Source: Candidatus Moranbacteria bacterium UBA2282 (GTDB taxonomy: Bacteria; Patescibacteriota; Minisyncoccia; Moranbacterales; UBA2206). From it: a DNA stretch of 64,000 nt. Below the pieces are notes generated by a model. The model was not told the origin of the DNA. It made no database searches and worked only from the letters and a program-made list of their open reading frames with translations. Positions 4,561-27,218 of this stretch are shown one piece after another; the first letter of the stretch is position 1; every line of letters begins with the position of its first letter. The position numbers and the translations under genes were made by a program. The stretch covers positions 83 through 64,082 of the forward strand of contig DDWQ01000019.1 in NCBI GenBank assembly GCA_002345745.1. The letters are read 5' to 3'.

Positions 4561-5605
4561 TCAAATCTTGACGTAACTCCTTGTCTTCGATTATCTTTTC
4601 TATCGCTTCAACAATCGAGTCAATATTTTTTCCATCAAAGAAATAGGCACTCTCACCTAAAATTTCCCGCATACAAGGATGATCAGAAGAAATGACTGGC
4701 ACACCTTTACTCATTGCTTCCAATGGCGGTAATCCAAAGCCTTCATACAGCGATGGAAAGATATTGGCAATTGATTGATGGAAAAGAACATCCAGCGTGT
4801 GATCAGAAATGTCCGACAAAAGGATGATGTTTCTAATCTGCTTATCCAAGATCAATTTATGCAATCGGTCATAAAAATAATCTCGTTTGCCAACTAGCAC
4901 CAGTTGCAACTCTGGTGAAGCTTGCAAAACTTGTGCAAAAGCCAGCACCAGTCTCTCCAAATTTTTGTGTGGATAGGCATTGCCGACATAGATCAGATAC
5001 GGTTTAATTATACCATACTTCTGCAAAATTTCTTGTGCATTTTTTGCACTGAACATACAATAATCTTCCGCCGACTCATAGGTCACAAAAATCTTTTTTT
5101 CTATCGCCCCTCCGTAATTTTCTATAATATCTTTTTTACTAAATTGCGAAATGGTGATAATGTCTCTTGCCCGCATGACAGCTAATTTGATTGCCATACG
5201 ATAGGCTAGAAATTTTATACGATACAATATCGGATGAAGTGTGCTACTGTGTACAGTCGGAAAATGCAATAATGTTAGATCATGAATCGTCACCACAAAT
5301 TTTCTACAATACATTATCGGCACGTTGAAATGTGGAAAATGCACTAAATCCAATTTATATTTATACAAAATCCAGGGGAAATAGATTTGTTCCGCCAAAG
5401 TATACCACTGATAGTCTGCCAAAACTTTCTGAAAATTCGGATTTTTCGGTTGATATTCATCGAAATTATCTTTTTTCAAAAACACAAAATATTGATTGCC
5501 ATCAGAAATGGCAACCTTTTCCAAATTCTCCACTAATTTTTGCGTATAACGCCCCAAGCCCTTCTGTTTAATCCCAAAAAAGCGGGCATCGATTCCAATT
5601 CTCAT
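4481..5605 (-). CDS. glycosyltransferase family 4 (GT-B)
   Basis: EGFGLPPLEAMSKGVPVISSD motif (E-x7-E GT4 signature), 374 aa. Confidence 0.8.
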   Translation of the reverse strand: MRIGIDARFFGIKQKGLGRYTQKLVENLEKVAISDGNQYFVFLKKDNFDEYQPKNPNFQKVLADYQWYTLAEQIYFPWILYKYKLDLVHFPHFNVPIMYCRKFVVTIHDLTLLHFPTVHSSTLHPILYRIKFLAYRMAIKLAVMRARDIITISQFSKKDIIENYGGAIEKKIFVTYESAEDYCMFSAKNAQEILQKYGIIKPYLIYVGNAYPHKNLERLVLAFAQVLQASPELQLVLVGKRDYFYDRLHKLILDKQIRNIILLSDISDHTLDVLFHQSIANIFPSLYEGFGLPPLEAMSKGVPVISSDHPCMREILGESAYFFDGKNIDSIVEAIEKIIEDKELRQDLIVRGYEQAKKYSWKKMAQETQTIYDK

Positions 5606-5681: not shown

Positions 5682-7436
5682 TTACCAACCGCCTCCTCCT
5701 CCACCGCCACCGCCTCCACCTGACCCACCAAAACCGCCACTACCCGAGCTAGAGGGTGCAGATGTGTTGGCTGCGATACTTGCCGAAAGATTGCTAATTG
5801 TGTCTGAAAAACTATCCACATTAAATGTGCCTACATTTCCAACATACCAAGCTGGAATATATGAAGAATAAAATTCCTGCCCATATACTTCTTGCATACG
5901 TTTGGCCCATAATTCCGTCATATCAAACACAATTGCATAGGGCAAAAATTTTTCAAAAATATTTTCTTTTTCATAAAACTCCGCCCGATCCTTGTCGACT
6001 GTTTCCATAAAAAGTTTAAAGCCTGCAACTTGCCAATTCATTTCAGCTCCGGCTGGCGTGCGTTTGGGCATAACAAAGCTAAACAACAACAAAAATATAG
6101 CAGATACCAAAAAACTCAAGGACAAAAAACCCAAAGCGTCAATAGACATGAAAAAAGGTATCATCATAATTCCAGCTACCACTCGAAAGGAATTCTTGAA
6201 ATACAATCCTGAAAAAACAACCAATCCCTTGTTCTGCAAAAGATCTTTGGTTGCATCTTTAATCCCAGGAATATGCGCATAGAAAGTTTTTTTCAAGTCT
6301 GAAAGATTCATTGTTTTAGCTCCTTCAAAAATATGACTCAGAATTTTCTTTTGCACAAGATTAAGCGCTTGCTCTGCTTCTTGATTTTCTTTTCTAATAA
6401 ATTTATAATCTTTTGAATCAATCAAAAACAAAAGTTTCTCGTGTGTTTCTTCGATAGTTATTAGCCCTTTGGTTGCTAGAAAAATAATTTCAGCCGTGAT
6501 CAATTTATTATCAAAGCCTCCACTTTTTTCAAGCATTCCCAATTCAATTGGTGAAAGATTGCCGGGAACTTCATATTCAGGAATAATGGTTTTATCCATT
6601 CGCGGATCTTTGCCATATTTCAACCACAATTGAAAACAAACAATTAGGGTTACTATTGGCACCAACAGAAAAAAATATTTGCCATATTTTTCCCAGAAAG
6701 TTAGTTGATATGGCATGATGATGTTTTTTGGAAAAATAATTGAAGCAGTTATCCCCTGACGCATATCAATCATTTTTGTGGATTCAAATTCCAACACATT
6801 AGACGCCTTCCAACGATAGATTGCCAAATCATTGCTCTTTGAACCAAGCGCGCCGGTATAATAATCCACGGTGGCATTCTGACTATTCACTGCTTCTGGA
6901 AAAGTGATTTCCGCTCGGAAATGATCAATCTGTAGATCCCAAAAATTACCATTCAAATTCCAATATAGCTCATCAAATTTCGGATTATCAAAACGCATCA
7001 CATTTCTGACCCTATAATGAATCTTATAGGTATGCACGCCATTCACCGTGACTTTTGGGTTTCCAATTTGCCAAGTCACTGTGTCAGTGTCCTTCTTTTC
7101 TGCATACTGAATTGCTTGTCCACTTTGATCTGTGATGTTCACAAGCTCAACCGGCATTGCCACTTTTATATTTCCTACCATAGCTGAAGTTGGCAAGATT
7201 CGAAAAATCCCATGCTTGCCGACTGCATTTCCGCAATCAGCTACAATAGTTTCATTGATATCAAGTGTTGAATTAGTGTTCACTACAATTTGCGAAGTGA
7301 AATCCTGGATATACCAATCAATCACATTTGTCCTAGCCTGCGAAACATTTGGCAACAAAAACATTCCCACTAAAAAAATTCCAACCCCGACTATCCCAAA
7401 ATATTTTGTGCTAATCTTTTTTGTGATTTCGGTCAT
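5682..7436 (-). CDS. DUF2207-like membrane protein with C-terminal poly-Gly tail
   Basis: N-terminal signal/TM, large extracytoplasmic domain, TM segments, then a C-terminus SSSGSGGFGGSGGGGGGGGGGGW, a glycine-rich tail typical of the DUF2207 family. Confidence 0.55.
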   Translation of the reverse strand: MTEITKKISTKYFGIVGVGIFLVGMFLLPNVSQARTNVIDWYIQDFTSQIVVNTNSTLDINETIVADCGNAVGKHGIFRILPTSAMVGNIKVAMPVELVNITDQSGQAIQYAEKKDTDTVTWQIGNPKVTVNGVHTYKIHYRVRNVMRFDNPKFDELYWNLNGNFWDLQIDHFRAEITFPEAVNSQNATVDYYTGALGSKSNDLAIYRWKASNVLEFESTKMIDMRQGITASIIFPKNIIMPYQLTFWEKYGKYFFLLVPIVTLIVCFQLWLKYGKDPRMDKTIIPEYEVPGNLSPIELGMLEKSGGFDNKLITAEIIFLATKGLITIEETHEKLLFLIDSKDYKFIRKENQEAEQALNLVQKKILSHIFEGAKTMNLSDLKKTFYAHIPGIKDATKDLLQNKGLVVFSGLYFKNSFRVVAGIMMIPFFMSIDALGFLSLSFLVSAIFLLLFSFVMPKRTPAGAEMNWQVAGFKLFMETVDKDRAEFYEKENIFEKFLPYAIVFDMTELWAKRMQEVYGQEFYSSYIPAWYVGNVGTFNVDSFSDTISNLSASIAANTSAPSSSGSGGFGGSGGGGGGGGGGGW

Positions 7437-7554: not shown

Positions 7555-8580
7555 CTATTTTTTCTTCTTTTCCATCTCTAAAATTTTCTGCACCTCTCGA
7601 TCAAAGTCAGATTCTATTGGTTGATTTTTATTAAATTCAGCATATTCGCGAAGAGCTTTCTTTTCCGCCTGCACATGAGAAACATTACCCAATCCAATTA
7701 ATATTTTATATTCGTTAAAACTTAGAAATTTATTTACACTTTCAGCAAACTCTGCCATGGTAAATGTTTGCCTATTTTCAATCAAGTTTTCAATGTAATC
7801 AAAAAATCCAGAAATATTCCGTTCCAATTTTTTAATTTCTTTTTCAGATAAATAATTTTTAGCAATAGCTACATCGGTTGCCAAAATTCTTCCTCTTGGA
7901 CTATTTTTCCAAGAGGTTAGCCCCATAAATGGTTTGTTTCTATCTGCCTTGTTAATTATTATCTCAGCTGCAGTTTTTCCCGTGATAGCAAAATGAAATT
8001 TATTTTGCACAGTCGCAAAAAAATCTTTAGTAGTTTTTGAATTTGGGTCATAATCAATACTGCACTCAGAAAAGATATCTGTAATCTGCAAATAAATCCT
8101 TCGCTCACTCGCACGAATAGAGCGGATTCTTTCCAATAATTCTCGGAAATAATCCTTGCCAAATACCCTCTCACCTTGTTTCAACATTTCATCATTCATA
8201 GCAAAACCTTTTATGATGTATTCTTTTAGCACTTGAGTTGCCCACATACGAAATTGCGTCGCTCGAGCAGAATTCACTCGATATCCAACAGAAATGATTG
8301 CGTCGAGATTATAAAATTCAATCTCCCGAGAAACAGCCCTATTTCCTTCTTTTTGAACTATTCGAATTTTTCGAATAGTTGCTTTTTCGCTTAATTCTCG
8401 ACTTCCAAAGATCTCCTTGAGATGATAATTTATTGTATTGATCTCCACGCCGAAAAGCTCTGCCATCATTTTCTGGGTCAACCAAAGAGTTTCATCTTCT
8501 AAAAAAACTTCCAATTTTACATCTCCAATTGGAGTGGTGTAAAGAATAAATTTAGATAATTCTGATGATTTTTTTTGCAT
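7555..8580 (-). CDS. RhuM-family protein (virulence protein RhuM-like)
   Basis: YNLDAIISVGYRVNSARATQFRMWATQVLKEY, the conserved RhuM core. 341 aa. No Fic/Doc motif is present. Confidence 0.75.
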   Translation of the reverse strand: MQKKSSELSKFILYTTPIGDVKLEVFLEDETLWLTQKMMAELFGVEINTINYHLKEIFGSRELSEKATIRKIRIVQKEGNRAVSREIEFYNLDAIISVGYRVNSARATQFRMWATQVLKEYIIKGFAMNDEMLKQGERVFGKDYFRELLERIRSIRASERRIYLQITDIFSECSIDYDPNSKTTKDFFATVQNKFHFAITGKTAAEIIINKADRNKPFMGLTSWKNSPRGRILATDVAIAKNYLSEKEIKKLERNISGFFDYIENLIENRQTFTMAEFAESVNKFLSFNEYKILIGLGNVSHVQAEKKALREYAEFNKNQPIESDFDREVQKILEMEKKKK

Positions 8581-13701: not shown

Positions 13702-16386
13702 CTAAAAATGCTTAATGCTCTTTTGTAACTCTTTCTGAATTTTCACTTTCTCTTTATATTCTTCTATCCTGCTTTTTGTCGCTTCAATAATCTCTTCTGG
13801 TGCTCCAGCCACAAAATTCTTATTTTTCAACATCCCCTCATTTTTAACAATCAGGTTTTCCAAATTTTTAACTTCTTTATCTATCGCAATTAACTCTTTT
13901 TCCACATCAATTGATTTGGAAATATTGAGTTGCAAGGTTCGGTTTCTAGTCGCGACTTGAATCATTTTTTCTTTCATACCTTTGCCAATTTCAATGTTAA
14001 CTCGAGCTAATTTCTCAATGATTTCTTTTTCTATTTTTTCGTTTCCATAAGCTTCAATTAAATCAATTGGGTCAATATGATAGCTAGCTCGAATGTTGCG
14101 AACTTTAGCAATCAATTCTTGCAAATCAGCAAAACTATTTTGAACTTTAGCATCAATAAATTTCTTTTCACTTTTTGGCCATTGTGCCATCATGAGCAAC
14201 TTGGACACTGGGTGTCCAAGGACACTCAGTGTCCTCTCATTCATAACTTGATAAATTTCTTCTGTCACGAACGGCGTAAATGGGTGCCACAGTTTTAAAA
14301 TCTTATCTAGAACATAACCCAAAACTTTTGTGTTTTTTTCAAGCTTATTAACTTCAAGGTACCATGACGCAAAACTATCCCATGTAAACTTGCGCAATGC
14401 ATCCTGAGCTAGGGAGATATTTTTATCTTTCAGAAAATCTGTGACTTTTTTATTCACGCCCTCTAACTCAGAAACAATCCACTTGTCAGACAAAGTTTTC
14501 AAATCATTCTTGCTAATTTTTTCCACTAAAACAAAGTCTTTATCTGATTGTTCACAATACCGAAAAATATTCCACAATTTAGTTACGAAATTGCGAAAGC
14601 TTTCTACTTTCTCTTCATACAAGCGTGAATCTTGCCCAGGAGCGATGTCCATCACCAGACTCAAACGCAAGGCATCCGCACCATATTTTTCAATTGTTTC
14701 TAATGGATCAATCCCATTGCCACGCGATTTGGAAAACTTATGACCCTCCTTATCTCGCACTAACCCGGTGAAATATAAATTTTTAAATGGAACTTTGCCA
14801 GTGCGATAAGCACCCATCATCAGCATTCTAGTCGCCCAAAAAGGCAAAATATCCCTGCCCATTACCATCATATCGGTTGGATAAAAATTTTTGAAATCTT
14901 TTCCCTTTGGTAAACCTAATGTCGTATACGGCCATTGACTTGAAGAAAACCAAGTATCAAAAGTGTTTTCATCTTGGATCCAACCCTTGCCTTTCGGCGC
15001 AGTGAGTCCAACATAAATTTCTTGATTTTCATTAGCTTTTGACTTTTGACTTTCGGCTTTCGGCTTCTCTCGATACCATACTGGAAATTGCGGGCCCCAC
15101 CAAATTTGTCGTGAGATACACCAATCATGCAAATTAGAAATCCAATTGATAATAATTTTTTTAAAATTTTCTGGATAGATTTCGACTTTACCTGATTTAA
15201 TCATCTCTAGTGTTTTTTTCTTAAGAGAATATTTTTCCGCATCAACTGACACAAACCATTGATTGGAAATCAGTGGTTCAATGACGGTTTTACATCTTTC
15301 ACAAACAGAAACATTATTTGTGATGGGTTCTTCCTTTTCAAATAAATCTAATTTTTGCAAGTCAGCAATTATTTTTTCTCGCGCTTCTAGAACTCCCATA
15401 CCAGCATATTCTCCGCCATTAATTGTGATTTCTGCTTTCTCGTCAATTACAAAAATCTCTTCTAGTTTGTGATCTTTACCAATTTGCCAATCCAAAGGAT
15501 CGTGTGCTGGTGTAATTTTCACCGCGCCCGTTCCGAAATCCATAGCAATCCGTCGATCAGCAATCACGGGGATTTCCCTGTTCTGCAATGGCAAAATTAG
15601 GTTTTGACCGATAAAACTCAAAAATCGTTTATCTTTTGGATTGACCGCCACGGCCGTGTCGCCCAGCATCGTTTCTGGACGCGTCGTTGCTACCACGACA
15701 AACTCCTTGGAATCTTTAACTGGATATTTGATATAATATAACTTGCCATTTTTTTCTTGATGTTCAACTTCCACGTCGGATAAGGCGGTCGCACAGCGTG
15801 AACACCAATTGATAATCCGATTACCTTTGTACACCAAACCATCTTTATACATTTTAACAAAAGTCTCCAGTGCTATTTTCAGACTATCTGGATCCAGTGT
15901 AAATTTTTCTCGCGACCAATCAGCACTAATGCCAATTTTTTTTTCTTGGGAACGCATATAATTGGAACGACCAATGCAAAAATCATAGCAATCTTTATAG
16001 AATTTTTCTCGTCCAATTTTATCGCGAGTTATGCCTTGTTCTTCTTTTATTTTTCGCTCATACACCACTTGTGTTTGAATTCCGGCGTGATCTTTACCCG
16101 GTAAAAGCAAAACTTTTTTGCCTTGCATACGCTCGAAACGTCCGAAAATGTCCATCACTGTGTAGCCACTGGCATGCCCCAAATGAAGTTCTCCATTAGC
16201 ATTCGGCGGCGGCAAAATATTGCAATATTTTCCTTGCCTACCGGCAGGCAGGTTCGTTGCCTTAATATTATCTGGATTAAAAAATCCACTCTCTTCCCAG
16301 AGCTTATAAATCTCAGCTTCGCGTTCTTTGAAATTATACTGCTTTGAAATTTCTCGCATAACTATTTTAATTATTTTTACCATCAA
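13702..16386 (-). CDS. valS: valine--tRNA ligase
   Basis: 894 aa class I aaRS with HLGH and KFSKS motifs, editing domain and C-terminal coiled coil. Confidence 0.9.
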   Translation of the reverse strand: MMVKIIKIVMREISKQYNFKEREAEIYKLWEESGFFNPDNIKATNLPAGRQGKYCNILPPPNANGELHLGHASGYTVMDIFGRFERMQGKKVLLLPGKDHAGIQTQVVYERKIKEEQGITRDKIGREKFYKDCYDFCIGRSNYMRSQEKKIGISADWSREKFTLDPDSLKIALETFVKMYKDGLVYKGNRIINWCSRCATALSDVEVEHQEKNGKLYYIKYPVKDSKEFVVVATTRPETMLGDTAVAVNPKDKRFLSFIGQNLILPLQNREIPVIADRRIAMDFGTGAVKITPAHDPLDWQIGKDHKLEEIFVIDEKAEITINGGEYAGMGVLEAREKIIADLQKLDLFEKEEPITNNVSVCERCKTVIEPLISNQWFVSVDAEKYSLKKKTLEMIKSGKVEIYPENFKKIIINWISNLHDWCISRQIWWGPQFPVWYREKPKAESQKSKANENQEIYVGLTAPKGKGWIQDENTFDTWFSSSQWPYTTLGLPKGKDFKNFYPTDMMVMGRDILPFWATRMLMMGAYRTGKVPFKNLYFTGLVRDKEGHKFSKSRGNGIDPLETIEKYGADALRLSLVMDIAPGQDSRLYEEKVESFRNFVTKLWNIFRYCEQSDKDFVLVEKISKNDLKTLSDKWIVSELEGVNKKVTDFLKDKNISLAQDALRKFTWDSFASWYLEVNKLEKNTKVLGYVLDKILKLWHPFTPFVTEEIYQVMNERTLSVLGHPVSKLLMMAQWPKSEKKFIDAKVQNSFADLQELIAKVRNIRASYHIDPIDLIEAYGNEKIEKEIIEKLARVNIEIGKGMKEKMIQVATRNRTLQLNISKSIDVEKELIAIDKEVKNLENLIVKNEGMLKNKNFVAGAPEEIIEATKSRIEEYKEKVKIQKELQKSIKHF

Positions 16387-17759: not shown

Positions 17760-18207
17760 ACTTGATATATTTTGCAAATTCCATTCCAATTTCAGCTTTT
17801 TCATCTAAAATAAAAATTCCTGAATGATCTTCGCCTATCCCCAATTCATCTTTAGCGCACAACATCCCAAAAGATTTCTCTCCGCGAATCTCCGCTTCTT
17901 TGATTTCCATCCCATTTGGCATTTTCGTGCCAACGAGCGCAACTGGAACTTTTTGTCCAACTGCGATATTCGGAGCACCGCAAACAATCTGAAGTTTCCT
18001 TCCGACTGCCCCCTCTCCTCTCTGAGGAGAGGGCTGGGGTGAGGTTTCTCCGATATCTACGATTGCAATTTGCAATCTATCAGCATTTGGATGTTTTGCA
18101 ATTTCCAAAATCTTCCCCACCACCACGCCAGCAAACGCCTGGTTTTGTTTTTCTGAAGCTACTTTTATGCCTAAAATATTTTTTAACCAACTATAAATAT
18201 ATTTCAT
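17752..18207 (-). CDS. stand-alone tRNA-binding protein resembling the PheT N-terminal domains (B1 plus OB-fold tRNA-binding domain)
   Basis: MKYIYSWLKN...AGVVVGKILEIAKHPNADRLQIAIVDIGE...LQIVCGAPNIAVGQKVPVAL...KIRGEKSFGMLC aligns with the first ~150 aa of bacterial PheT. It carries a GC-rich in-frame insert (TSPQPSPQRGEGAVG). Confidence 0.65.
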   Translation of the reverse strand: MKYIYSWLKNILGIKVASEKQNQAFAGVVVGKILEIAKHPNADRLQIAIVDIGETSPQPSPQRGEGAVGRKLQIVCGAPNIAVGQKVPVALVGTKMPNGMEIKEAEIRGEKSFGMLCAKDELGIGEDHSGIFILDEKAEIGMEFAKYIKSL

Positions 18208-21046: not shown

Positions 21047-22297
21047 TTATTCTTTGCGCAAAGCATCCATCGGCGTCATTCGGGAAGCTTTGCGGGCCGG
21101 ATAGATTCCAAATCCCATTCCGGTTAAAACAGAAAAACCGATGCCCAAAAAGACGGCATAAGGAGAGATCCCAAGCTCCACCATATAACCTGCTCGCAAT
21201 GCTAATTTAGAGGCAAAATAGATTAAGATCGCCCCTAAAATAATACCCACAATTCCGCCTAAGATAGTAATGAAGATCGATTCGAATAAAAATTGCTTCA
21301 AGATGCTGGAATTTTTTGCGCCCACCGCTTTGCGCAGACCGATTTCCGGTGTCCTCTCCACCACTGAAACATACATCACATTCATGATGCCCACGCCACC
21401 CACAACAAGAGAAATTGAGGTGAGTGCGATGAGAAGAAGATTAACCACTAGAAAAACATCATCCAGCATTGTTGTGAATTCCTCGATGGAGGCCACCACG
21501 AAATCATCGTCGTTTGGATCTGTGATGTCATGGCGGTCCCGCATAATATCTCTCGCCTGCACCATCGTAAGCTCTGCTAATTTTTTATCTTCAAACTTGA
21601 AAATAGAAGACTGGACATAATCGATGCCAGCAATCTTTTTTTGGAATGTCTCGATCGGCACATAAATTAAATCATCAAAATTGAAAAACGCCATCGAACC
21701 CCTTTCTTCAAGATAACCAATCACCCGATAGTTCACGCCTTTGATCCTGATGTTTTTCCCCACTGGATCTTCATCTTTAAAAAGGTTTTCTTTGACTTGG
21801 CTTCCCAAAACCACTACCTGACTCAAACTCTTATCCTCATCTTGCGTATAACCAAAACCGTCAGCAAATTTGATTTGTTGATCAATGTCAAAAATTCCAG
21901 ACGAAGCCGCATAAATCATAGTCTGTTTGGTTTCTGAGCCATAACTCGTAACAGCCTGTCCGATACTCGCCGCATACCAACCAGAGACATTCGGCAATTC
22001 ACCAACTTCTTCTAGGTCACCGATCTTAAGGGTTGTTATAGAACCACTCGTTGCGCCTTGCACATTCTCTGAGGACATTTGCTTGGCTTGCGGAACCTTC
22101 ACTTCAATTTGAAATATGTCCGTTCCGAAAGATTCAACCTGACCGACAATATAATCTTTTACTCCAAACCCCAAAGAAAGAACCAGCACAACGGATACCA
22201 CTCCAATCACAATTCCCAAGACTGACAAAACAGTCCTGGCTATATTGGAGCGCAGATTATTGAGAGCTAATTTAATTGAAATTAATATTTCATGCAT
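21047..22297 (-). CDS. ABC transporter permease, FtsX/MacB-like
   Basis: 416 aa with an N-terminal TM, a MacB-like periplasmic core domain and a C-terminal FtsX 3-TM domain. Confidence 0.8.
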   Translation of the reverse strand: MHEILISIKLALNNLRSNIARTVLSVLGIVIGVVSVVLVLSLGFGVKDYIVGQVESFGTDIFQIEVKVPQAKQMSSENVQGATSGSITTLKIGDLEEVGELPNVSGWYAASIGQAVTSYGSETKQTMIYAASSGIFDIDQQIKFADGFGYTQDEDKSLSQVVVLGSQVKENLFKDEDPVGKNIRIKGVNYRVIGYLEERGSMAFFNFDDLIYVPIETFQKKIAGIDYVQSSIFKFEDKKLAELTMVQARDIMRDRHDITDPNDDDFVVASIEEFTTMLDDVFLVVNLLLIALTSISLVVGGVGIMNVMYVSVVERTPEIGLRKAVGAKNSSILKQFLFESIFITILGGIVGIILGAILIYFASKLALRAGYMVELGISPYAVFLGIGFSVLTGMGFGIYPARKASRMTPMDALRKE

Positions 22298-22306
22298 AAA
22301 AATTTA

Positions 22307-22460
22307 TTCATATCTTAATGCTTCCATTGGACTTATACGCGAAGCTTTGCGAGCAGGCCCGCCTGCATCGCATAAGCTATTTATTAATTAGTACTTTCTT
22401 TTTTAGTTTCATTATTCATATCTTAATGCTTCCATTGGACTTATATGCGAAGCTTTGCGG
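22307..22460. repeat. direct duplication (~45 bp, period 108 bp) of the 3' end of the upstream permease gene
   Basis: TTCATATCTTAATGCTTCCATTGGACTTATA(C/T)GCGAAGCTTTGCG occurs at 22307-22351 and at 22415-22460. The second copy encodes the C-terminal residues (RKASRISPMEALRYE) of permease 22412..23662. Confidence 0.7.
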
Positions 22461-23662
22461 GCAGGATATAATCCAAAAATCAAACCTATCAGAATGGAAA
22501 CTGTCGTAGCTACCGCGATCGACTGCCAGGAAACGATAAATTCCCAATCATAACCAAAACCTTTGATCACAACAAGAGAAATAATAAGGGCAATTAAAAT
22601 TCCTAAAATTATCCCAATGATTCCCCCAATCAAGGTTATTGTCACTGATTCAATTAGAAATTGAGACATAATAGCTGTATTTTTTGCTCCCACCGCTTTA
22701 CGCAAGCCCACTTCTCTGATCCGTTGATTAACAGAAATAAGCATAATATTCATAATGCCCACCCCTCCGACCAAAAGCGAAATCGATCCGACTGCCAACA
22801 AAAAATATTTCAAAACGTTTGTTACATTAGTGATGGTTTTGAGAGCCGAGGCAATGTCACGCACTGAAAAATCGTCATCTTTCGGATTATCGATATCGTG
22901 CCGCTCTCTAAGAGTTGTTGCCATGTCTTCTTTGGTCTTGGAAATATCATCGATATTACCAACTTTTACACGTAAAAATGAAAGATGATTAATGCCTAAA
23001 ACAATTTTTTGTGCAGCCTTAAGCGGAATGATTACTGAATCATCTGGACTGGCCATTCCAAAACCAGAACTACCTTTCCTTTTCAAAATCCCCACTACGG
23101 TGAAATTTTCATTCTTGATTTCGATTTTTTTCCCAAGCGCATTGTCCGTCCCAAAAAGCTCTTCCTTAGTATCAGCCCCAATTACCGCAATCCGAGAAAG
23201 ACTAGCATCATCTTCAGAAGAAAAAAACCTACCTTCTTCTATCTCGACATTTTCCACATTGATATAATCATGTGTGACACCCATGATTGTATGTGCATAA
23301 TCATTATCTTGATACGAAACAGTCCGCGTCCCTTGGGCATAGGCCGCCCCAGTTTCCACACTGGGCACATTTTTCTTATCCATGAGCGCCAAGAAATCAT
23401 CATACGTCAAAGTTGTAATGATAATTCCCAGCGCCTGTGCCGGTGGACCATCCTCATCTGAGGCTCCTGGCAAAACTCCAATTAGATTTGAGCCTACGCC
23501 GGAAATCTGATCCAAAATGAGCGTCTGAGCCGAACCACCGATAGCCATAATCAAAATCACTGAACCCACTCCGATCATGATTCCAAGAACCGTCAAAAAC
23601 GAGCGAAATTTATTCGCCATCAAATTGCGATATGAAATTCTCACTGGATCCATTACTCGCAT
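22412..23662 (-). CDS. ABC transporter permease, FtsX/MacB-like (paralog)
   Basis: 416 aa, the same architecture as 21047..22297. Confidence 0.8.
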   Translation of the reverse strand: MRVMDPVRISYRNLMANKFRSFLTVLGIMIGVGSVILIMAIGGSAQTLILDQISGVGSNLIGVLPGASDEDGPPAQALGIIITTLTYDDFLALMDKKNVPSVETGAAYAQGTRTVSYQDNDYAHTIMGVTHDYINVENVEIEEGRFFSSEDDASLSRIAVIGADTKEELFGTDNALGKKIEIKNENFTVVGILKRKGSSGFGMASPDDSVIIPLKAAQKIVLGINHLSFLRVKVGNIDDISKTKEDMATTLRERHDIDNPKDDDFSVRDIASALKTITNVTNVLKYFLLAVGSISLLVGGVGIMNIMLISVNQRIREVGLRKAVGAKNTAIMSQFLIESVTITLIGGIIGIILGILIALIISLVVIKGFGYDWEFIVSWQSIAVATTVSILIGLIFGLYPARKASHISPMEALRYE

Positions 23663-23732
23663 AATCCGTATAAATTACTAATCCTCAAAGGAGCTAAGCT
23701 CCTTTTGAAGCTCCTTTTGAAGCTCCTTTTTA

Positions 23733-24383
23733 CTATTCCTCTAATAAATATTTAGCTGTTTCTTTCTTCTCTTTTAAATATAATGCATTATTCTTTAAAA
23801 ATTCCCCGTATTGCCCAATATTATTGTTAAATTGTACCATAATAGATTCTTTATTGCACAGCGTTCCAGCTCTTTTTCCTAAATAATCCAGTAAACTAGA
23901 ATATTCCCAATCTTCTGCTCTATAACCATGAATAAAATTATTTTTGTTTACATAAGCAGAGAGATATAGTAAATATTCATTTGAATTAATATATATTGAT
24001 TTAAACGGCCCCTGAAAAAGTGACCCTGAGCGTTTGTATTTTTTGTTGAAATAATTTGTGTAACCAGTACCAATTTTGTGCATAAAAGTTTTTACGCCAT
24101 TTGTTCTCAATTGTTTCAGTATAATATGATAGTGATTTGGATTTATACAATAGCAAACTATTTCCACTAAATTATCCAGTTTCACAGAGGTGGAGCTAAG
24201 CTCTTTTAAGGAGCTTAGCTCCTTTTCAAACATCCGTTGTTCATAAGTTGAATCATCATTAAATTCGCGCATGCTATTTAAAAATCGAATATAATCTTCC
24301 TCATCCAAAAACACCTCTCGCTTGTCTACTCCGCGATTATAAATATGATAAAATTCTTCGTTTTTAAATTCTGTTTTTCGCAT
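23733..24383 (-). CDS. IS200-like / REP-associated tyrosine transposase (Y1, HuH family)
   Basis: FYHIYNRGVDKREVFLDEEDYIRFL...CYCINPNHYHIIL (HuH motif)...GYTNYFNKKYKRSGSLFQGPFKSIYINSNEYLLYLSAYVNKNN (catalytic Tyr region)...EDWEYSS. It is collinear with RAYT/IS200 TnpA families, with a ~30 aa insert. Confidence 0.8.
   Translation of the reverse strand: MRKTEFKNEEFYHIYNRGVDKREVFLDEEDYIRFLNSMREFNDDSTYEQRMFEKELSSLKELSSTSVKLDNLVEIVCYCINPNHYHIILKQLRTNGVKTFMHKIGTGYTNYFNKKYKRSGSLFQGPFKSIYINSNEYLLYLSAYVNKNNFIHGYRAEDWEYSSLLDYLGKRAGTLCNKESIMVQFNNNIGQYGEFLKNNALYLKEKKETAKYLLEE
24191..24230. repeat. REP-like palindrome pair (GGAGCTAAGCTC ... GGAGCTTAGCTCC) embedded in-frame in the transposase ORF
   Basis: The same motif as at the element ends. 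It encodes KELSSLKELSS inside the transposase. Confidence 0.6.
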
Positions 24384-24416
24384 ACTCTGACAAAAGAAAC
24401 TTTTTTAGGTCCTTTT

Positions 24417-25343
24417 TCACAATGAATTAATAAAATTATCCTGTTCTTGAATGTTTTCATCTAATTCCCCTATTTTGCGAAATACTCCCTCGCCGAAAGT
24501 GCGATCAATTAACTTTCCAATAGAAATTATGTTTCCAGTCATCATTGCTTTTGAAAACATTTCAAAAATATCTTCCCTATTCCTGAAATCTTCTTTGTTT
24601 TGCTCAAATAATTTATCAATTAAAATACTTAATATTTTTCTTCCTATTGTATTTGTAAAACTCTCAATATTTATCTTGTTCGATCCATCTTCCATCTTGG
24701 CATAAATCGTATCACTGTTGAAAAGATATTTTCCATCATTCGTCATAGCATTTAGATGTTTTTTTATTATTTCATTTGTTTCTTTTATTTCAGCTGAAAA
24801 TAATGGATTATTAGCTACTTTTGCAAGAATACTCCTTGTCATTTCTTCCGTAACCGCTTCATTTAAAATTCTGAAGCGCAATCCCTTTCCATTTCGCATG
24901 CTAACGGTTAACCCAACCCTATATTCATCAGCACTGCCATCATCTAGAATTTGTAGGGCATTATAAGATTTAAAATGCAACATTTCATGCACTACTTTTT
25001 TCATAAAAACAATGCTGGCAGCCTGTTCTTGTAGAGCAACAGATTGTGCCATTGAAACATAAATTGCACTTGCTTTTTTTGGCCACTCATTCTTTTTCAC
25101 AATGTGAATATTTTTTGATGGTATATTAAATAAATCTAAGTCGTACTTTTGTCTAATTTCATTTGTAAGCCTATTTGCAAGTTCAATAATTTGCAACTCC
25201 TTTGGAGTTTTTTCTCTTTCTTTGCCAATTAATTCTTGAAATTCTTGATTGTTAAACTGCCATTCTTTTTCCTTAATAATTTCATTTTTTTTATTTTCAT
25301 TTGCTTTTCCAACAACCCGCTCAAAAGAAGTAAATTTTTCCAT
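24417..25343 (-). CDS. hypothetical protein with HExxH (zinc-metallopeptidase-like) motif
   Basis: 308 aa with a VVHEMLHF motif and no TM. Co-located with the transposase between the palindrome clusters. Confidence 0.4.
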   Translation of the reverse strand: MEKFTSFERVVGKANENKKNEIIKEKEWQFNNQEFQELIGKEREKTPKELQIIELANRLTNEIRQKYDLDLFNIPSKNIHIVKKNEWPKKASAIYVSMAQSVALQEQAASIVFMKKVVHEMLHFKSYNALQILDDGSADEYRVGLTVSMRNGKGLRFRILNEAVTEEMTRSILAKVANNPLFSAEIKETNEIIKKHLNAMTNDGKYLFNSDTIYAKMEDGSNKINIESFTNTIGRKILSILIDKLFEQNKEDFRNREDIFEMFSKAMMTGNIISIGKLIDRTFGEGVFRKIGELDENIQEQDNFINSL

Positions 25344-25452
25344 ATTTATAAATATTTTTACTCATATATCTTAAATTTTATTTTCCACACATCTTATAAG
25401 AAGTCAAAAGGAGCTTCAAAAGGAGCTAAGCTCCTTTTTCTAGCTCCTTTTT

Positions 25453-26181
25453 CTATTTTAGCAGTTCACCGTCTGTCGCAAAACGGCGGGTCTGGATTAT
25501 TTCGTCAGAAACAATAGCACCGTCTTTCATGCGAATGATGCGCTTGCCATGCTCAGCTGTGAAAGTTTCATGAGTTACTAAAATAATTGTCTTGCCAGCA
25601 TCATTCAAGTCCTGCAAAATTTTCATCACTTGCGTGCCGGACTTGGAATCCAAGTTGCCAGTCGGTTCGTCAGCGAATATAACACTTGGATCGTTGACCA
25701 GTGCACGCGCAATCGCTACGCGCTGCCTCTCACCACCCGAGAGTTGATTAGAAAAATAGTCCTTGCGATGCTCCATACCCACACTGCGCAAAGCTTCAAG
25801 AACTTTTTTAGAGTTGTCATTGGAAAGTTCCTTGTCATAGAGAAGTGGCAATTCCACATTTTCAAAAACCGTGGTGCGTGGCAACAGATTGAAAGTCTGA
25901 AAAACAAATCCCACTTTTTTGTTGCGAATCTCCGCCAATTCATCATCAGAAAAATCTTTCGTATTTTCTCCTTCCAAAAGATATTCTCCGTCACTTAACC
26001 GATCCAAAAATCCCAACATTTGCATTAGAGTTGATTTTCCAGAACCGGACGGCCCCATGATGGAAACAAATTCACCTTCTCCTACAGAGAAAGAGACACC
26101 GCAAACCGCCTGAGTGAAAACTCCCTCATTCTCATAAGTTTTGCACAAATTTCTGACTTCAATCAATGTTGACAAATTCAT
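25453..26181 (-). CDS. ABC transporter ATP-binding protein (MacB/LolD-type)
   Basis: Walker [10 protein letters not shown], signature [15 protein letters not shown], Walker [13 protein letters not shown]. Confidence 0.9.
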
Positions 26182-26210: not shown

Positions 26211-27218
26211 TTATTTTTTCTCAGAAGAGAAAACAATTATTTCTTGTCCCTCAGAAAGCCCGCTTTTCACCTCAATCATTCCTCCATCGCCTGCAAGCTC
26301 GGTTTCCACATAAATTTTTTCAGTGAAAGAAGTTTTTCCGTCAGTCTTCAAAATTTCCACATATTTTTTCCCATCTTCCTGTTTGACTGCCCGGCGGGAA
26401 ATCATAAGTACATCATCTTTTTCAGCAGTCAAAACATCCACATCAGAACTCATCCCAATCTTAAGACGCTGATCATTTGAATCCATCTTCAGTTTGACCT
26501 TGTAATAGACCACGTCCTGAATCACATTTGAAGCGGGGTATATCTCCACTACTTGGGCCTTGAAAATATCTTGGTCTGTCAAAGAATCAAAAACAACCTC
26601 GGCAGACTGTCCCAACCGGACACTAGCAATATCCACTTCTGGGACATTTGATTCGATCACAAGATTTTCCGGATCAGCCACAGTCACAATTGATGAACCA
26701 GCTGAAATCATTTCTCCAACACTGGCATTCTTCGCAATTACTATTCCAGCTATCGGAGAATAAACAGATGTTTCTCCCATCTGACGCAAGATTCCGTCCA
26801 ATGAAGCTTCATATTTTTTAATAAGCACTCGCTGTGCATCCCGTTGATCAAGAGTGATTGTATCTTTTTTATCCATCATATCGCTCAAATTTTTCTTCTG
26901 AATCTTAATATCTGCCTCAGCTTGACGCAATTGTTCATACAGAACACCTTTGTCGATTGTCGCAATTAATTGTCCTGCCTCTACCTTGTCACCAATATCC
27001 ACCTTGAGCACAGTGATTCTGCCCGAAGACTTGAAAGCCACCTCAGCCATTTCGTCAGACTTAAATTCACCCGTCACTGAAACAGTTTGCGCCAATCTTC
27101 CTTTGGTCACTTTTTCCATGACATAGGGACTCGCTTCTTCTTTTTGGAAATACTTATAGCCTCCAAAAGCCATTGCAATTATAATAACAAGCCAGATTAA
27201 TTTTTTTTTATATTTCAT
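26211..27218 (-). CDS. HlyD/MacA-family periplasmic adaptor (membrane fusion protein)
   Basis: 335 aa with an N-terminal TM, a biotinyl/lipoyl-like barrel (VKSGLSEGQEIIV) and coiled-coil region. Confidence 0.75.
   Translation of the reverse strand: MKYKKKLIWLVIIIAMAFGGYKYFQKEEASPYVMEKVTKGRLAQTVSVTGEFKSDEMAEVAFKSSGRITVLKVDIGDKVEAGQLIATIDKGVLYEQLRQAEADIKIQKKNLSDMMDKKDTITLDQRDAQRVLIKKYEASLDGILRQMGETSVYSPIAGIVIAKNASVGEMISAGSSIVTVADPENLVIESNVPEVDIASVRLGQSAEVVFDSLTDQDIFKAQVVEIYPASNVIQDVVYYKVKLKMDSNDQRLKIGMSSDVDVLTAEKDDVLMISRRAVKQEDGKKYVEILKTDGKTSFTEKIYVETELAGDGGMIEVKSGLSEGQEIIVFSSEKK

Follow-up and report, generated by a model that had tools for sequence, protein, structure and literature searches.

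We analyzed a 64,000-nucleotide (nt) stretch of the Candidatus Moranbacteria bacterium UBA2282 genome (contig DDWQ01000019.1; hereafter the window), focusing on a 1.8-kb segment in which a transposase gene and a set of short DNA hairpins lie inside an ABC efflux operon. The operon is encoded on the minus strand and comprises a HlyD-like (MacA-like) adaptor (26211-27218), an ABC transporter ATPase (25453-26181; PF00005, 2e-33), and two MacB/FtsX permeases, the first at 22412-23662 (PF12704 and PF02687) and the second at 21047-22297. Between the ATPase, which forms the upstream flank of the inserted segment, and the first permease, which forms its downstream flank, two extra minus-strand open reading frames (ORFs) are found: a 308-amino-acid (aa) ORF with a predicted zincin-like (HExxH...E) metallopeptidase fold (24417-25343), and a 216-aa ORF predicted to encode a Y1/HUH transposase of the REP-associated tyrosine transposase (RAYT) type (23733-24383), REP standing for repetitive extragenic palindrome. 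The segment has a G+C content of 0.28-0.33, compared with 0.38-0.46 in the flanks. The transposase-hairpin block occurs once in the 64 kb, no tnpB is found in the 1.8-kb segment, and a search for RNA families gave nothing above noise across 23000-26000.

The hairpins share the core GGAGCTWAGCTCC and have A/T runs at their feet. Searching both strands of the whole 64 kb for the palindrome GGAGCTAAGCTCC with at most one mismatch returned seven strand matches at four sites (23690, 24192, 24210, and 25422), where shuffling gave an expectation of 0.01, and the half-site AGCTCCTTTT occurs eight times versus 0.24 expected. At both outer sites the full palindrome is clustered with 12-nt half-site repeats, and the stretches 23687-23720 and 25404-25437, one at each end, make up an inverted repeat of 34 nt with 97% complementarity. 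The ATPase-proximal cluster (25404-25454) consists of two copies of TCAAAAGGAGCT, a central A, and two copies of AGCTCCTTTTTCT, with the full palindrome at 25418-25438, and its last unit shares 2 nt with the ATPase stop codon (25453-25455). Folded as single-stranded DNA, as were all hairpins for which energies are given, this end reaches -17.6 kcal/mol (z score -5.45). The permease-proximal cluster (23687-23732), a palindrome at 23687-23705 followed by two more AGCTCCTTTTGA half-sites, folds at -10.1 kcal/mol (z score -2.47). An earlier reading of the letters alone (the original prediction) had described the two extra minus-strand genes, hairpin-forming palindrome clusters at both ends, and a motif seen nowhere else in the 64 kb. 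The ORFs and Pfam assignments confirm the genes, the inverted repeat and fold energies bear out the clusters, and neither GGAGCTAAGCTCC nor AGCTCCTTTT has a match outside 23687-25452 within the 64 kb. A promoter-like TTGACT-16 nt-GAAAAT stretch on the minus strand (25380-25407), recognized as a consensus match only, overlaps the inner edge of the ATPase-proximal cluster and precedes the 308-aa gene by about 37 nt.

Two further features lie within the segment. The first, unmentioned in the original prediction, is an inverted doublet of the locus palindrome that lies in frame within the transposase ORF (24189-24226; -13.2 kcal/mol, z score -4.64). It encodes residues 53-65 (EKELSSLKELSST), including the peptide KELSSLKELSS, falls in a hypervariable loop of the family alignment, and is retained in the orthologues of L004, L001, and L215 (L numbers denote loci in relatives, and W the window's own locus). 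The second is a decayed hairpin remnant between the 308-aa and transposase genes (24384-24416; coding strand aaaaggacctaaaaaagtttcttttgtcagagtATG), for which no stable single-stranded fold was found. By eye it aligns with the intact hairpin that stands directly upstream of the L004 transposase (aaaaaggagctaagctccttttgccagaatATG), and also with a similarly decayed hairpin in L218.

The transposase and its hairpin family

The 216-aa protein passes the Y1_Tnp profile (PF01797; 30.5 bits, cut-off 23), and both the HUH histidines H84 and H86 (NHYH) and the tyrosine Y144 are invariant among 33 relatives. Its AlphaFold2 (AF2) model has a pLDDT of 87.5, dropping below 50 at residues 60-67, a low-confidence stretch that the doublet-encoded residues 53-65 overlap. 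The top structural match of the model in the PDB is 4er8 (E 2e-6, target-normalized TM 0.71), the E. coli REP-associated tyrosine transposase in complex with a REP hairpin, followed by the IS608 and ISDra2 TnpA proteins. Conserved motifs and the modeled fold together indicate that the protein is a RAYT-type Y1/HUH transposase, as originally predicted. PADLOC gave no defence-system assignment for either this protein or the 308-aa protein, and PHROGs returned nothing meaningful for either.

Scanning GTDB genomes turned up at least 584 transposase relatives, nearly all in Patescibacteria assemblies with a few under other labels, and some genomes hold two. Going by source labels, the genomes that carry either of the two protein families are Patescibacteria, mostly Moranbacteria-like. 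To characterize hairpins across the family we used 73 transposase loci, and within each gene the variable loop was taken as the stretch between the conserved MREFN and LVEI.CYC.NPNHYH blocks. The longest perfect stem in this loop has a median of 11, reaching at least 7 in 62 of the 73 loci and at least 10 in 51, whereas an equal-length conserved core of the same genes has a median stem of 5 and reaches 10 in none of the 73. Loci that lack a palindrome are those with the shortest variable loops. Inverted doublets are common among the intragenic copies and can form perfect stems as long as 26 bp, and about 11 loci have an additional copy in a second variable loop near nucleotide 450-510.

In 53/73 loci the palindrome of the loop has a further copy no more than 150 nt from the ORF (on both sides in 27), and the usual positions relative to the gene are about -35, +180, and +10 to +30. 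Hairpin sequence varies by lineage (e.g., GGACACCCAGTGTCC, GGCTCTAAGAGCC, GGAAGTCCGACTTCC, GGGAGCCGAGCTCCC), and near relatives switch all copies jointly: L066 has three copies of GGGAGCTCAGCTCCC and L067 four copies of GGGAGCTTAGCTCCC. Paralogous transposases within one genome likewise carry unlike hairpins (L018/L019, L015/L030, L021/L039, and L009/L026). These patterns indicate that each transposase is specifically paired with its own hairpin family, the property that defines RAYT/REP systems, with the intragenic copy as an addition. In the papers on RAYT/REP systems that we read there was no report of a hairpin copy inside the transposase gene, and literature searches gave no description of such systems in Patescibacteria. 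Hairpins in frame within the transposase gene and other genes are the newly reported feature of this clade.

The same data bear on whether the palindromes might simply be intrinsic terminators of the ordinary bidirectional kind, or stem-loops that stabilize the operon mRNA, with no relation to the transposase. The stems do stand at gene ends with A-runs and T-runs at their feet, and known REPs are able to act as terminators or attenuators (PMC3337134, PMC3733652). Yet a consensus terminator scan does not call the locus palindromes, the same 13-mer occurs twice within the transposase ORF and at none of the many other gene ends of the 64 kb, and the hairpin sequence follows the individual transposase gene in the 53 loci counted above. 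With a motif that is specific to the locus and tracks the transposase across the family, we regard this explanation as barely credible, and the ends are REP-like hairpins rather than generic terminators, as had been proposed.

We therefore consider that the locus is probably a REPtron, namely the gene of a RAYT-type Y1/HUH transposase accompanied by the REP-like hairpins cognate to it, and that it belongs to a large clade of these systems, not described before, within Patescibacteria. REPtrons such as E. coli YafM (4er8) and the Pseudomonas RAYT-REPIN systems share several of its properties: the Y1/HUH fold with 4er8 as best match, a low-copy gene with the same short palindrome on both sides and often in inverted doublets, an own hairpin family for each paralogue, and inheritance that is mostly vertical with occasional loss. 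The present clade differs in its Patescibacteria hosts, in the in-frame hairpin doublets that most members have in the transposase ORF, and in the many cognate copies within other ORFs.

Several observations weigh against a REPtron. The protein scores 29.5 bits against the NCBIfam profile REP_Tyr_transpos (NF047646), far below the cut-off of 80, which seems to reflect the distance of the clade. Sequence profiles of the transposase family gave no match in the PDB, and the link to 4er8 runs through fold comparison only. The GTAG guide tetranucleotide, placed at the hairpin foot in GTAG-type systems, is absent in W, where the feet are A/T runs, and many relatives have ACTTGG...CCAAGT instead. Classical REPs are abundant genome-wide, whereas here no further GGAGCTAAGCTCC copy is present in the remaining 62 kb and there is no sign of a high genomic copy number; the repeat scan covered the 64-kb window, and genome-wide dispersal of the hairpins is hypothetical. 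Binding and cleavage of the hairpins by the transposase are predicted by analogy with solved complexes. In addition, the in-ORF doublet of L218 (GGGGACTWAGTCCCC) is unlike the hairpins that flank its own gene and the L042 transposase has no in-ORF hairpin, so the matching pattern is frequent but not obligatory. The L218 doublet (within 5140-5260; GGGGACTAAGTCCCC / GGGGACTTAGTCCCC) is a compensatory variant of GGAGCTAAGCTCC, and the flanking hairpins of that locus remain of the GGAGCT type, partly decayed.

Gene contents and history of the ATPase-permease junction

Orthologous sites in relatives were recognized by shared synteny (CoA ligase, RecJ, RNase H, HlyD, ATPase ... MacB, MacB, small ORF, DsbA). 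In the close relatives L205 and L206/207, whose ATPases are 93% and 92% identical to that of W, the site is empty and the ATPase and permease genes are directly adjacent in a tight TAA-T-ATG junction, which supports the claim that the segment was inserted into the operon. L208/209 (ATPase 86-87% identical to W) and L210/211 (82%) are also empty, with a spacer of 18-21 nt. The W stretch 23663-23686, with the coding strand reading ..TTTGAGGATTAGTAATTTATACGGATT ahead of the MacB ATG, resembles the empty-site spacers of L210 (ATTTGAGACTTACAATTTATT) and L208, and appears to be the leftover of the ancestral ATPase-permease spacer.

The occupied sites differ in content. L004/005 and L215/216 have a hairpin, a transposase (91% and 88% identical to that of W, respectively), and a second hairpin, without the 308-aa gene. 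In L001/002 a hairpin is followed by an AsnB-like gene, a radical-SAM gene, a hairpin, a transposase, and a hairpin, and the entire 20-nt hairpin AAAAGGAGCTAAGCTCCTTG recurs as a direct repeat on either side of the two-gene block. L218-220 holds a decayed hairpin, a transposase (70%), a hairpin, an APH-like kinase gene, and a hairpin remnant. L042 holds a small membrane ORF followed by a transposase (48%) that lies between two hairpin doublets. L217 lacks a transposase and has, after a decayed hairpin at the stop-codon junction, a His-phosphatase-like gene and a gene of 337 aa. All transposases of close relatives occupy this one junction, and the 308-aa gene is missing or replaced at every other occupied site. 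Among close relatives, one hairpin-marked junction in a conserved operon thus has six or more distinct gene contents. These comparisons show that the hairpin-bounded stretch beside the transposase took up different genes in different lineages, here the 308-aa gene, and they indicate that the locus marks a gene-turnover hotspot. On a smaller scale, the half-site repeats vary in number and orientation among W, L004, and L001, which points to continuing turnover.

The ATPase stop codon abuts the hairpin alike in W, L001, and L217 (TAG|AAAAAGGA...). It is TAG at these three loci, TAA at all empty sites, and TAA also where the hairpin lies 9-12 nt off (L004, L215); this split may be a footprint of insertion. 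In L217 the decayed hairpin (6651-6680; AAAAAGGAACCTAGCTCCTTTGAAG) abuts the stop codon as in W and is followed by the two unrelated genes, a pattern consistent with decay of the repeat following loss of the enzyme.

A neighbor-joining tree of ATPase and MacB gave ((L205,L206),(L004,W)), then L001, then L208, then L210. L217, with its hairpin remnant only, is nearest to the empty L206, so the empty tight junctions are most simply explained as losses. The transposases of L004, L218, and L042 are 91, 70, and 48% identical to that of W, with ATPases at 95, 79, and 72%, values that a vertically inherited but faster-evolving gene could produce. In L001 and L215 the relation is reversed, the transposases being 87% and 88% identical and the ATPases 82% and 75%. 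At third codon positions the difference is larger still (72 and 66% for the transposases versus 52 and 48% for the ATPases). This codon-level comparison rules out strictly vertical inheritance for these two loci, whose transposases are too W-like relative to their host genes and point to lateral replacement. The junction is occupied across hosts of 72-95% ATPase identity to W. The transposase and hairpins became lodged right after the ATPase stop codon of the MacAB-like operon in an ancestor of the group, and from the sequence comparisons we infer long residence there, with losses and at least two lateral replacements, through either site-specific insertion or recombination.

The 308-aa protein follows a history of its own. 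Its confident model shows a zincin fold with the HExxH helix and a third metal ligand, and within the family E120, H123, and E162 are invariant and H119 nearly so. The HExxH protein noted in the original prediction thus has a recognizable fold, and searches assigned it to no family in Pfam, NCBIfam, PADLOC, or PHROG. A Pfam match to the SinI restriction enzyme (18 bits, below the cut-off of 22) was dismissed on the strength of the confident zincin-fold model. Homologues with 57-69% identity stand alone in three unrelated contexts with no transposase nearby: beside Fic and type I restriction-modification genes in L003, where no related hairpins were found around the gene, beside a TrmB regulator gene in L212, and beside Bro-N and patatin genes in L214. 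Since its homologues stand alone without the transposase, the 308-aa gene is an independent accessory gene and a lineage-specific, replaceable passenger of the slot, neither part of a fixed element nor a functional partner of the transposase.

These results separate two halves of the initial proposal, an IS200/IS605-like or REP/RAYT element with a cargo gene. The RAYT with REP-like hairpins stands, and the single two-gene insertion sequence (IS) with cargo is not supported, as L004 and L215 lack the 308-aa gene and L001 and L218 have other genes. Spelled out as an alternative explanation, the whole 1.8 kb would be one active IS200/IS605-type IS, with subterminal hairpins bounding the transposase and a non-TnpB cargo, recently inserted into the operon. 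This model accounts for the Y1 transposase fold, for a 34-nt inverted repeat that spans exactly both genes, and for the low G+C and the empty sites of close relatives; the L001 and L215 transposases, far closer to W than their host genes, also imply that a transposase-hairpin unit moved between genomes. Against it, the 308-aa gene is inconstant at the junction and its homologues are never beside a transposase in the three contexts examined, a decayed hairpin lies between the 308-aa and transposase genes, and the element is a single copy in the 64 kb, with the same palindrome at both ends rather than distinct left and right ends, and without tnpB. Moreover, the same junction holds transposases of 48-91% identity, which speaks for long residence. 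We judge a single active IS to be very unlikely.

Another explanation is that the hairpins form a gene-capture platform, in which the Y1 enzyme joins hairpin-bearing circular or single-stranded DNA at a resident hairpin and builds cassettes, loosely like integron attC sites. It would fit the at least five different gene contents that are each bounded by hairpin copies or remnants at one junction, the two-gene block of L001 between direct repeats, and the shared stop-codon abutment of W, L001, and L217. However, other loci of the family hold housekeeping genes (adenylate kinase, Obg) between hairpins, as simple local hairpin spread into intergenic spaces predicts, we observed no cassette that recurred at a second, different hairpin site, and illegitimate or homologous recombination at palindromes would look alike. 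Active capture is in our estimate unlikely. The notion that segments between hairpins are always accessory cassettes is likewise weakened by the housekeeping genes in such segments.

Proposed mechanism and related systems

For a REPtron of this kind, the solved RAYT, IS608, and ISDra2 complexes suggest a mechanism. The transposase would bind the hairpins as folded single-stranded DNA and cleave beside them through its HUH/Tyr site, and hairpin units would thereby be copied or replaced, mainly near the transposase's own gene. Such cis-biased copying would homogenize the upstream, internal, and downstream copies within a lineage while lineages drift apart. The in-ORF doublet could be a by-product that a permissive surface loop tolerates, or else a stem-loop braking expression of its own gene.

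Elements of the IS200/IS605 family (IS608, ISDra2) share the catalytic fold and the HUH/Tyr motifs with the present transposase and, by analogy, hairpins as the recognized DNA. The transposase coding strand here is G-rich and the presumed lagging-strand template, an arrangement that would agree with the orientation bias known for these elements, though nearly all genes here share this strand. They differ from the present locus, which is a single copy with an identical palindrome at both ends, lacks tnpB, and combines long residence at one chromosomal junction with an inconstant passenger gene. TIRtrons, or TIRYTs, are tyrosine transposase genes between long terminal inverted repeats (PMC3733652). 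The 34-nt inverted repeat around the W block, formed by the hairpin and half-site clusters, is reminiscent of them; here, however, the repeat is built of REP-type palindromes and 12-nt half-sites, and the differences in repeat number and orientation among W, L004, and L001 argue against a fixed terminal repeat.

Most work on RAYT/REP systems has concerned Proteobacteria and extragenic repeats. The present clade brings a system of this kind to the ultra-small genomes of Patescibacteria, with most members holding their own target palindrome in frame in the transposase gene. It offers a tractable natural system for the co-evolution of a Y1 enzyme with its DNA substrate, and it bears on how repeats persist where genomes have hardly any intergenic space, and on whether REP sites promote gene gain and loss.

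Palindromes within other genes

Cognate hairpins are not confined to the surroundings of the transposase. Among the 30 that lie more than 200 nt from the transposase on the same contig, 12 are deep within long ORFs. More than 120 metagenome contigs, most of them low in G+C, contain the 17-mer AAGGAGCTWAGCTCCTT. Of the 80 that were listed and examined, just 2 have a transposase, and 45 of the 102 sites on those contigs are deep in long ORFs, mostly in the KELSS frame and including several doublets. Single matches of this 17-mer are individually indistinguishable from chance, and we used only the doublets and the enrichment of extended palindromes, which continue past the 17-mer by at least two pairs in 32% of cases versus 7% expected. 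A doublet cannot match by chance, and the AAGGAGCTWAGCTCCTT family is therefore also in frame in other genes. Such doublets are seen deep in long ORFs at L087 403-446, L094 2028-2067, and L095 1824-1873 (e.g., KELSSFNDDEQKELSS).

Within the window, the valyl-tRNA synthetase (ValRS) ORF (13702-16386, minus strand) has an in-frame doublet of another hairpin family, CTTGGACACTGGGTGTCCAAG and GGACACTCAGTGTCC, at 14199-14234. It encodes ..ERTLSVLGHPVSK.., exactly where the T. thermophilus ValRS (1gax) has a 10-residue gap, and its peptide LGHPVSK is also found in the variable loop of the transposase relatives P0133 and P0207. The window contains no other copy of this hairpin family, nor was a cognate transposase found there. 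Cognate palindromes thus persist in frame in genes other than the transposase, including a valyl-tRNA synthetase.

Rickettsia palindromic elements (RPEs) and intragenic REPs offer a parallel, in that in-frame palindromes are tolerated in functional genes (here the transposase, ValRS, and the 12 of 30 nearby cognate copies). The units here are far shorter (13-25 nt, doublets 30-50 nt), and a cognate transposase can be identified for them, with its own gene regularly serving as a host. Intragenic REPs have been reported for the GTAG and CGTC families (PMC3733652).

Taken further, these patterns could mean that in this Patescibacteria RAYT/REP clade hairpins routinely lie in frame in genes, essential ones and the transposase itself included, that the intragenic copy is functional (for autoregulation, or as a master copy by which enzyme and substrate continue to co-evolve), and that hairpin sites additionally serve as site-specific platforms for gene capture and exchange within operons. 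We view this extended interpretation as conceivable but doubtful.

Other palindromes were noted in coding frames of the window. At 18011-18033 a perfect 10-bp G+C-rich palindrome (CCCTCTCCTCTCTGAGGAGAGGG) lies in a minus-strand frame that is open for about 155 codons, where it encodes ..DIGETSPQPSPQRGEGAV.. right after an HPNADRL motif, and it may be another in-frame palindrome insertion. Two unlike perfect 11-bp palindromes, AACTATTCGAATTTTTCGAATAGTT at 8356-8380 and AACTGTTTCCATTTTGGAAACAGTT at 36944-36968, each lie in one of two minus-strand ORFs, apparently paralogues, where the surrounding peptides are similar (..ATIRKIRIVQKEGNR.. and ..ATVSKMETVQIEGNR..); in this pair the palindrome is maintained despite differing sequence.

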